Of a stretch of DNA of 4,874 bases, positions 54 to 1,095 are shown piece by piece. The position numbers and the translations under genes were made by a program. How positions within the stretch are numbered: position 1 is the first letter of the stretch; every line of letters begins with the position of its first letter. Origin of the DNA: a virus (Duplodnaviria > Heunggongvirae > Uroviricota > Caudoviricetes). The notes under the pieces were generated by a model. It saw only the letters and a list, made by a program, of their open reading frames with translations, searched no databases and was not told the DNA's origin. The DNA lies in the IMG/VR virus record IMGVR_UViG_2703718811_000006, positions 1-4,874 of that record; one strand, written 5' to 3'.

Positions 54-1095
54 CCAGATTTCGCTTGTTGCGTTTATCCGAGCGGATCTGAACATCGTTA
101 AATGATCCGTTTCCGTTTACCGTCAAATTTCCATTAATACCACCATCAAAAGTTTGTGCCTGAGTCCATGTATTGGCAGTAGTAAGCAGTTCTGTTCCTT
201 GCCCGGGGGCTCCAGGATCGCCTTTATCTCCCTTCGGACCCTGCGGCCCTTCCGGACCTGCTGGACCTGCCTCTCCCGGATCACCTTTGTCACCTTTCGG
301 CCCGGGTGCCCCTGCCGGACCTGTGGCTCCTGTATCCCCTTTTGGTCCCTGTGGCCCCGCCGGGCCTGTGGCTCCTGTATCCCCTTTCGGTCCCTGCGGT
401 CCTGCCGGACCTGTGGCTCCTGTATCCCCTTTTGGTCCCTGTGGCCCAGCCGGGCCTGCGGCTCCCGTATCTCCTTTCGGTCCCTGCGGTCCTGCCGGGC
501 CTGCAGCTCCCGTATCCCCCTTGTCGCCCTTCGGTCCCTGTGGACCTCCCGGGTCGCCCTGCTCACCTTTCGGGCCGGTATCCCCCTTATCGCCCTTGTC
601 TCCTTTATCCCCCTTTGGCCCCTGTGGGCCTGCCGGACCCGTATCGCCCTTGTCTCCCTTCTGTCCCTGCGGACCCGTTGCTCCGGTGTCGCCTTTCGGT
701 CCCTGTGGTCCCACCGCCGTTTCCGCTTTCCTCGCCGCTTCCTCTGCCCTGCTGACAGCCGCATCCGCCGCGTCTTCCAGTTTTTTCAGCGACTCAGGGT
801 AATAAGTGCTGTCCTGCTCACGCAGCAGAAACGCATTCAGTGTGCCCGGTTCGTCGTCTGCCATGACGTCAATCTCGCCAGCGCATGACGGCTGACGACC
901 TTCCACGCACAGGGTCACACGATAACGCCCCGGCTCAACCTGCATGGTGTAACTGCCTGTTTCCCCTGGCTGACACTCCGCCACCGTGGTGACTATCACC
1001 GTCTCACTCGTTCGTGTGGCCTTCAGCTCTATGGTGCAGTCCGGTACCGGTTTTCCTGTACCATCCTTCAGCACGCCTGAAATCTGTACTGACAT
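34..1095 (-). CDS. stf: Side tail fibre protein with a lambda Stf-like N-terminal domain and a collagen-like Gly-X-Y repeat domain. As it stands the ORF ends prematurely at the start of the expected C-terminal intramolecular chaperone domain, so it is possibly a pseudogene or contains a sequencing error.
   Basis: The N-terminus [26 protein letters not shown] matches the lambda Stf N-terminus as I recall it ([25 protein letters not shown]). A short coiled-coil-like stretch ([25 protein letters not shown]) is followed by about 57 uninterrupted Gly-X-Y triplets (aa 129-300, nt 196-711), then [42 protein letters not shown], which resembles the approach to the Ser-Asp autocleavage site of peptidase S74-type chaperone domains. 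The ORF then stops after 12 more residues, while a different frame stays open to position 1. Confidence 0.85.
321..500. repeat. Four tandem copies of a 45-bp unit (equivalently two copies of a 90-bp unit) inside the collagen-like coding region, with degenerate copies on both sides.
   Basis: Units begin at 321, 366, 411 and 456 (plus-strand unit ctgtggctcctgtatcccctttYggtccctgYggYccNgccggRc). Copies 321 and 411 differ at only one or two positions, as do copies 366 and 456. On the minus strand each unit encodes a 15-aa [14 protein letters not shown](A/T) repeat. A diverged copy follows at 501-545. Confidence 0.85.

Follow-up and report, generated by a model that had tools for sequence, protein, structure and literature searches.

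A probable collagen-shafted side tail fibre of the EPcl family in an Escherichia coli lambdoid prophage, with in-frame length variants and mosaic junctions in its Gly-X-Y region

The window analysed here is a stretch of 4,874 nucleotides, positions 1 to 4,874 of the IMG/VR virus record IMGVR_UViG_2703718811_000006 (Caudoviricetes). Positions 196-711 of this window very probably encode the collagen triple-helix shaft of a lambda Stf-type side tail fibre, a member of the EPcl family carried by an E. coli lambdoid prophage, and the same segment would be the site of insertions and deletions (indels) and of crossovers between fibre genes; a probability of about 0.85 is assigned to this reading. E. 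coli chromosomes are the best matches of the window, the top match being 99.5% identical across all 4874 bases, and in the top-matching chromosomes the three genes are annotated as gpJ, Ail/Lom and "prophage tail fiber N-terminal domain-containing protein". In loci L001 and L002 (L numbers are given where homologous loci have to be told apart), the annotated homologous genes lie in a complete tail module adjoining chromosomal genes. All genes of the window are on the minus strand and, from the list of open reading frames (ORFs) and Pfam, are ordered J-lom-fibre, which is the J-lom-stf order of the lambda late operon, lom as the upstream neighbour fixing this lambda-like arrangement. The fibre gene comprises the following features:

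34-1095, minus strand: side tail fibre ORF, 353 aa (Pfam phage_tail_N and Collagen)
712-1095, minus strand: PfN, or lambda Stf-type, collar domain with a short linker, aa 1-128 (PF08400)
196-711, minus strand: collagen-like Gly-X-Y domain, aa 129-300 (PF01391, E 4e-26)
535-558, minus strand: one-residue register shift GDPGGPQG, aa 180-187 (triplet count and homologue comparison)
293-519, minus strand: tandem array with a 45-bp (15-aa) unit ending [A/T]GPA and a 90-bp higher-order repeat (Tandem Repeats Finder)
448-492, 403-447, 358-402 and 313-357, minus strand: units 1 to 4, of exact length and in coding register
50-52, minus strand: AAA run (coding strand), one base shorter than in all seven closest genomes (alignments)
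1-49, minus strand: out-of-frame Peptidase_S74 remnant, the rest beyond the left edge (comparison with the L002 protein)

The domain identities are demonstrated by profile and structure matches. PF08400 (phage_tail_N) covers aa 1-127 with E 8e-39 and 133 bits, against a cutoff of 26.6. The structure-homology searches used as their query L002, a near-identical intact homologue, and its aa 1-91 match the N-terminal chain of Ur-lambda gpStf (9E7M) with E 6e-27. In the Ur-lambda structure, four trimeric side fibres are anchored by the gpStfN domain, a collar in contact with gpV and gpM (PMC12617516); the N-terminal domain encoded here would likewise be a collar fixing a trimeric fibre to the tail tip. 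A first-pass annotation, made by a model from the sequence alone, had proposed a collagen-like tail fibre with a Gly-X-Y region at 196-711. These coordinates prove exact (aa 129-300), and the assignment is borne out by the PfN/Stf N-terminus and collagen domain, found directly after J and lom. Contrary to what had been stated, the run of triplets is interrupted: the region consists of 57 Gly-X-Y triplets plus one extra residue, arranged as 19 triplets, the break at 535-558 and 38 further triplets. At the collagen rise of 2.9 Angstrom (0.29 nm) per residue (PMC3368898), these ~172 residues would form a rigid rod of ~50 nm, to which each 15-aa unit would add ~4.4 nm, and the single GDPGGPQG break may act as a kink or hinge.

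The distal part of the fibre is best seen in the intact homologues (L002, L004 and L005), which are 434 aa long versus 353 aa in the window. Peptidase_S74 (PF13884) covers aa 339-394 of L002 (E 4.5e-12), and aa 320-433, the last ~115 residues, match the distal tip of phage S16 gp37 (6F45) with E 2e-12. The gene downstream of the fibre in intact relatives has a Gp38_N domain (Pfam), and the combination is suggestive of a siphovirus side fibre with a two-part tip of the gp37/gp38 type. In these relatives the rod would lead into a short tip domain and then a Peptidase_S74-type intramolecular chaperone, which would help to fold the tip, and the tip would carry the Gp38-like adhesin encoded immediately downstream. 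The likeness to the S16 tip comprises the C-terminal 115 aa, Peptidase_S74 and the downstream Gp38_N gene; the differences are that the tip here would be borne on a siphovirus-type Stf collar by way of a collagen rod, rather than on a gp34-36 fibre, and that no intact part of it lies inside the window. Lambda Stf shares with the present fibre the homologous collar (L002 against 9E7M), the gene position after J and lom, and presumably a role as an accessory fibre speeding adsorption. In lambda, however, Tfa takes part in assembly and the shaft is an alpha-helical coiled coil that has a hinge and a distal part resembling gp37, whereas the shaft here is predicted to be a collagen triple helix and the partner gene of the relatives encodes a Gp38_N adhesin rather than Tfa. 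That partner gene lies just past the left edge of the window and encodes 170-171 aa with a Gp38_N domain (T-even adhesin; L001 3194-3706, L002 3191-3706, L008 4253-4765), and in some loci (L001, L004-L007) it is followed by a truncated DUF4376 gene.

The same tip is found in other phages. By tblastn against sequenced phages, which reached the C-terminal 134 aa only because the collagen part was masked as low complexity, this portion of the intact fibre (window 1-195 and beyond the left edge; L002 3792-4200) is 99.3% identical to the fibres of P13374 and phiON-2011, which are O104:H4 Stx2 phages, and of Ss-VASD and 75/02 Stx, which are Shigella phages. We take the O104:H4-type Stx2 phages to be short-tailed. 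In megablast against the sequenced phages, these four phages showed no J-lom-Stf context at the DNA level, and the tip module thus appears, from its sequence, to be common to different phage types. The same 134 aa are 71% identical to Stx2-86 gp21, listed as EPclD by Ghosh et al. A whole-window megablast against sequenced phages matched J and lom only (980-4874), leaving the fibre unmatched, and no sequenced phage in the searched collection combines this N-terminus, collagen region and C-terminus at high identity.

As judged by sequence features, the closest known system is EPcl, and the protein of the window is a family member with an EPclD-type C-terminus and no PCoil, PCoil being the only feature compared that is absent. 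EPclA to EPclD are built of PfN, often a coiled coil termed PCoil, one or two collagen domains and variable C-termini; EPclA was found experimentally to be a dumbbell-shaped trimer whose collagen triple helix is thermostable, and the proteins were read as side tail fibres (Ghosh et al. 2012, PMC3368898). A triple helix or trimer was shown experimentally for EPclA and EPclB only (PMC3368898), and we infer trimer formation for the protein described here. The collagen lengths of EPcl copies differ by multiples of three residues, their modular architectures point to inter-prophage recombination, and the same GXPGGPXG interruption has been described in their long or double collagen domains (PMC3368898). 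Each of these traits has a counterpart here: a PF08400 N-terminus followed by (Gly-X-Y)n rich in GPK, GPQ and GPA triplets, a single G-X-P-G-G-P-X-G interruption (GDPGGPQG), a side-tail-fibre position in a lambdoid prophage tail module (full in L001 and L002), a collagen length that varies by three-residue multiples, and modular C-termini. The differences are three. First, the Ala/Ser-rich PCoil is missing, and collagen begins at aa 129, directly after PfN, while Shigella and E. coli homologues with the same C-terminus begin collagen at aa 251. EPclA, B and D contain PCoil and EPclC often lacks it (PMC3368898); its absence is an architecture variant rather than an exclusion criterion in Ghosh et al. 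Second, the C-terminus is of the Peptidase_S74 type and not PfC (PF06820). Third, the copy in the window is truncated by a frameshift (vide infra).

Within the collagen DNA, Tandem Repeats Finder reports period 45 at 293-519 (5.0 copies, 85% matches) and period 90 at 311-519 (2.3 copies, 93% matches), so that head-to-tail units of high identity, one mark of a variable-number tandem repeat (VNTR), are present. Identity is 100% between units 2 and 4 and 91% between units 1 and 3, but only 82-89% between adjacent units; the real period is therefore 90 bp, and the higher-order unit is present twice. A degenerate fifth copy with an extra GDK triplet occupies 493-546. Exact repeats reach at most 47 nt, at offset 90, and 27/30 nucleotide differences, summed over unit pairs, are synonymous. 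When whole Gly-X-Y codon blocks were shuffled 1000 times, no shuffle gave an exact self-match longer than 40 nt or a best 135-nt identity above 0.75, as against the observed 47 nt and 0.90 at offset 90. The higher-order repeat exceeds what collagen coding alone yields, which upholds the two 90-bp units of the first-pass annotation. Its four near-identical 45-bp units at 321-500 are a cyclic permutation of the array defined here; the array is real, but the near-identity does not extend to adjacent units.

Length variation was followed at three depths: a search of 5426 complete E. coli genomes, a survey of 120 listed homologues (clusters), and a comparison of eight loci at least 97% identical, namely the window and seven genomes (Japan, China, Thailand and the UK, counted as three continents). 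The full-length gene occurs in only 7/5426 of the complete genomes. All eight of the closest loci have four 45-bp units, although they differ by up to 3% elsewhere, and one of them has a 9-bp deletion at 632-640. Fibre genes in the same neighbourhood nevertheless encode proteins of 434, 431, 391 and 388 aa, produced by in-frame collagen deletions of 9, 129 and 138 bp between flanks that are 97-100% identical. The shortest alleles, those of L008 (3001-4167) and L010 (689-1864), have in-frame deletions of 138 and 129 bp, giving 388 and 391 aa respectively; both loci share with L004-L006 the J-lom-fibre-Gp38_N neighbourhood and the flanking chromosomal genes, and the flanks of the gene are 97-100% identical to L004. 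The deletions (window equivalent ~505-645) end at a short direct repeat, GGNGATAC(A/G)GG, with a GATA...CAGG microhomology of ~10 bp. Both remove the GDPGGPQG break, and therefore the shorter fibres would be uninterrupted triple helices; the fibre may thus have a hinged and a straight form.

Variation in unit number appears at greater distance. Homologues with one C-terminal type (DSGLFGV...) and the same collagen lead-in have 1, 2, 5 or 7 further whole units, counted as copies of the 15-aa unit after the common lead-in copy; the 120 listed homologues contain between 8 and 77 triplets and, by regex matching, 0 to 8 units. Copy number is thus not invariant at every homologous locus, and the fibre length variation predicted in the first-pass annotation is seen in the 434-, 431-, 391- and 388-aa alleles and in the 1-7 further units; what was not seen is any change in array copy number among the eight closest loci. 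From these comparisons, fibre length varies slowly over evolution, and the locus is not hypermutable.

The collagen segment also appears to be where mosaic fibre genes are joined. The same N-terminal domain is connected through collagen to at least five C-terminal domain types, and not one BLAST breakpoint in the E. coli genome search lies outside 196-711. Matches on the N-terminal side start at 247, 248, 284, 290, 293, 311, 359 or 576 and those on the C-terminal side end at 519, 522, 537, 547, 661 or 708; most N-side matches (~290-1100) and C-side matches (1 to ~537) overlap on ~290-537, in essence the stretch occupied by the tandem array. In some 350 other genomes, O157:H7 among them, the similarity is confined to a 90-bp piece of the array (355-447, 86%) within fibre genes that are otherwise different. 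In strain ES5, two prophages each carry a related array-bearing fibre gene (two distinct loci were verified). One of them, L012, has the flanking context of L004 but differs from it in C-terminus and partner gene; homology between the two stops ~50-60 nt before the collagen end. Counts of places per genome (up to 17 for the gene and up to 14 for the array) were rejected as a measure of co-resident prophages and left unused, because off-register alignments within one array are counted separately and inflate them.

Substitutions among the eight closest loci are likewise gathered in the collagen DNA, where 40/56 variable columns lie in haplotype patches. The density of variable sites is ~3x higher there (40/516 positions) than in the rest of the gene (16/584). 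Over 1100 bp, L001 and L007 match the window except for a unit-type swap at 358-409 and an indel at window ~50, and 12/19 substitutions between L004-L006 and the window lie in 324-526, with none in 53-323 or 527-827. Such patches would fit gene conversion or recombination within or between arrays. The suggestion that the repeats drive mosaic recombination stands in so far as the junctions all lie within 196-711 and two related copies reside together in ES5; these are positions of junctions, and the causal role assigned to the repeats is our inference.

These observations can be accommodated as follows. The shaft would have grown partly by duplication of a 15-aa, five-triplet unit, which is now arranged as a 90-bp higher-order repeat present twice. 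All Gly-X-Y coding DNA resembles itself and also the collagen segments in other fibre genes. Its self-similarity would lead to in-frame deletions and duplications by slippage or by unequal or illegitimate recombination between units or short GGNGATACNGG motifs, and its similarity to other collagen segments would make it a homologous crossover segment by which one N-terminal attachment module is joined to different receptor-binding C-termini. A change in fibre length produced in this way may in turn affect adsorption.

Several points weigh against this account. The deletions found in the same neighbourhood lie upstream of the array, in the non-tandem part of the collagen region. Copy number is invariant in the eight closest loci and slippage within the array must therefore be rare; adjacent units, moreover, are a poorer slippage substrate than the first-pass annotation assumed, at only 82-89% identity. 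The clustering of breakpoints partly reflects where BLAST terminates alignments, which tends to be in repetitive DNA; many of the matches that define the breakpoints are related to one another and not independent. Finally, the copy in the window is frameshifted, and this particular fibre may be non-functional, or its sequence may be in error.

A more specific proposal is offered only tentatively. The array might go beyond a mere side effect of coding for collagen and serve as a conserved DNA "adaptor" for swapping lambda-type Stf attachment modules and receptor-binding tips of other phage lineages, the gene of the window being one such recombinant, and the deletions that remove GXPGGPXG (in the 388- and 391-aa fibres) might toggle the rod between hinged and straight and could thereby change adsorption. 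We regard this as possible, but it is less probable than its opposite.

Among the alternatives, the one that survives best attributes the length differences mainly to imported collagen segments, from another prophage or an infecting phage, with local slippage and unequal crossover playing a minor part. The patchy haplotypes, above all the 12 sites of L004-L006 confined to 324-526, would be expected on this view, as would the attachment of five or more C-terminal types to the same N-terminus, the 99.3% identity of the C-terminal module to O104:H4 Stx2 phage fibres and the residence of two related copies in strain ES5. The 129- and 138-bp deletion alleles, with flanks 97-100% identical and ends at short direct repeats, bear instead the signature of local deletion. 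Import and local deletion are not mutually exclusive, but import as the main source of length differences is considered somewhat doubtful.

It is very unlikely that the array is a fast contingency locus, in which frequent slippage switches fibre length or phase within a population. The idea draws on the presence of tandem units in a surface-recognition gene, on the 0-8 units seen across the family and the 1-7 further copies within one group, and on known collagen-repeat polymorphisms: the copy number of collagen repeats varies, with functional effect, in Legionella pneumophila Lcl (PMC6460258) and in ORF8 of the Guarani virophage (PMC7242381). The variation in copy number between closely related isolates that marks a VNTR or contingency locus was not found, however, as 8/8 loci from Japan, China, Thailand and the UK, up to 3% divergent elsewhere, have four units; the units are 45 bp long and differ between neighbours to the extent given above, and all of the changes are in frame, so that no on/off switching would result. 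BclA of Bacillus anthracis (1WCK) is also among the PDB matches. Its repeat number is linked to exosporium filament length. Lcl, BclA and virophage ORF8 resemble the present fibre in having collagen-like units of strain-variable number that alter a surface property or host range, but Lcl and BclA are cellular surface proteins and not phage fibres, and an effect of length, demonstrated functionally for Lcl, BclA and the virophage, is hypothetical for the present fibre.

The truncation of the fibre in the window results from a 1-nt deletion at 50-52, which puts translation out of frame 9 codons past the Ser-Asp (SD) of the SDKR motif, with a stop at 34-36; the ORF is therefore 353 aa instead of 434, and the Peptidase_S74 chaperone domain is lost. 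An in-frame PF13884 domain after the Ser-Asp site is accordingly lacking in the window and present in L002. The gene of the window is probably a pseudogene, or else the deletion is a homopolymer sequencing error. Programmed frameshifting at this A-run was dismissed, as the run is only 3-4 bases long and 7/7 relatives read through it in frame. In L001 (OkiPb01712, at 4360) and L007 (OkiPb01678), an extra G occurs in a GGG run within the array, and RefSeq labels both genes "frameshifted". The unit-type swap of these two loci (window equivalent ~358-409, 52 bp) could be either gene conversion or an artefact of repeat polishing. The indels of the window and of L001 and L007 all fall in homopolymers and may represent either genuine pseudogenisation or errors of sequencing.

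That the array itself is an assembly artefact, with its copy number collapsed or expanded, is hardly credible. Fragments that start or end in the array account for 5/120 homologue clusters (138 member sequences), on contigs of at most 9.8 kb, and the region does break short-read assemblies; the extra G and unit swap of L001 and L007 could be polishing errors, and the window has a homopolymer indel of its own at 50-52. Against this, window 311-500 (190 bp) is 100% identical to two independent complete genomes, five more have the same four-unit structure, and the array is in frame with perfect Gly-X-Y throughout. The warning in the first-pass annotation that the region is prone to assembly collapse is thus justified by the broken clusters, but it does not apply to the array of the window.

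The collagen region is also unusual in the number of its open frames. Five of the six reading frames are free of stops throughout 196-711, a number reached by 0/2000 dinucleotide-preserving shuffles. Codon shuffles, which destroy every periodicity above 3 nt, still leave 3-5 frames open, with 6% reaching five. Only 5% of the plus strand of 196-711 is A, a base that no stop codon lacks. The open frames are therefore caused by the amino-acid and codon composition of collagen and not by the 45-bp repeat, whose periodicity had been put forward as their explanation and is ruled out as such by the codon shuffles. The long overlapping ORFs that result (123-764 on the minus strand; 154-888, 173-802 and 306-755 on the plus strand), although they span 149-244 codons in a segment of 516 nt whose five open frames were equalled by 0/2000 dinucleotide shuffles, can be dismissed as real genes, since none of the four has a Pfam match, their openness is reproduced by shuffled collagen codons (3-5 frames), their translations are low-complexity mirrors of Gly-Pro codons, and the RefSeq annotation of every relative contains the fibre gene and none of them.

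The remaining features of the window lie upstream of the fibre gene:

1826-4874, minus strand: J, tip attachment protein or central tail fibre, C-terminal ~1012 codons, running past the right edge
1160-1759, minus strand: lom, Ail/Lom outer-membrane beta-barrel, 199 aa (PF06316, E 1e-116)
1112-1133, minus strand: terminator-like hairpin with T-run, between lom and the start of the fibre gene (consensus scan)

The J part contains the Pfam domains Ig_J, Phage-tail_3, Phage_Tail_Tip and Ig_GpJ_C, and the relatives are annotated as gpJ. GC-rich terminator-like hairpins with T-runs occur on the minus strand after lom (1112-1133) and after J (1789-1808), each just upstream of the start of the next gene; both are pattern matches to a consensus only. 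Across the relatives, the J-lom-fibre module is found in three flanking contexts: an ompW fragment with yciE/yciF (L001, L007), an IS66 element (L002, L003), and a ykgJ-family gene with potB (L004-L006, L008, L010, L012). The module is therefore carried by prophages at different sites, or adjoins rearrangements.

The family was already described in 2012, along with the variation in its length, the conserved interruption and the modular recombination, and the phenomenon is in this sense a known one. The idea of collagen repeats as crossover sites has an analogue for the antireceptors of dairy phages. In Streptococcus thermophilus phages, according to the citations given in PMC5601072 and PMC7242381 (Desiere et al. 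1998; Duplessis and Moineau 2001), Gly-X-Y repeats lie between host-recognition domains, and the collagen-like repeats of the antireceptor have been proposed as recombination hotspots; those systems differ from the present one in their Gram-positive hosts, unrelated flanking domains and shorter repeats. The practical value of the present analysis lies mostly in annotation, as it accounts for broken short-read assemblies, for spurious long ORFs in five frames, and for what is likely to be either a pseudogene or a homopolymer error.

For the phages themselves, the collagen segment would be a simple spacer of adjustable length that is at the same time a ready-made crossover site. In lambdoid and Stx-converting phages, adsorption rate and host range depend partly on the side tail fibres, and the reshuffling of fibre modules therefore bears on the spread of virulence-carrying prophages among E. 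coli lineages.

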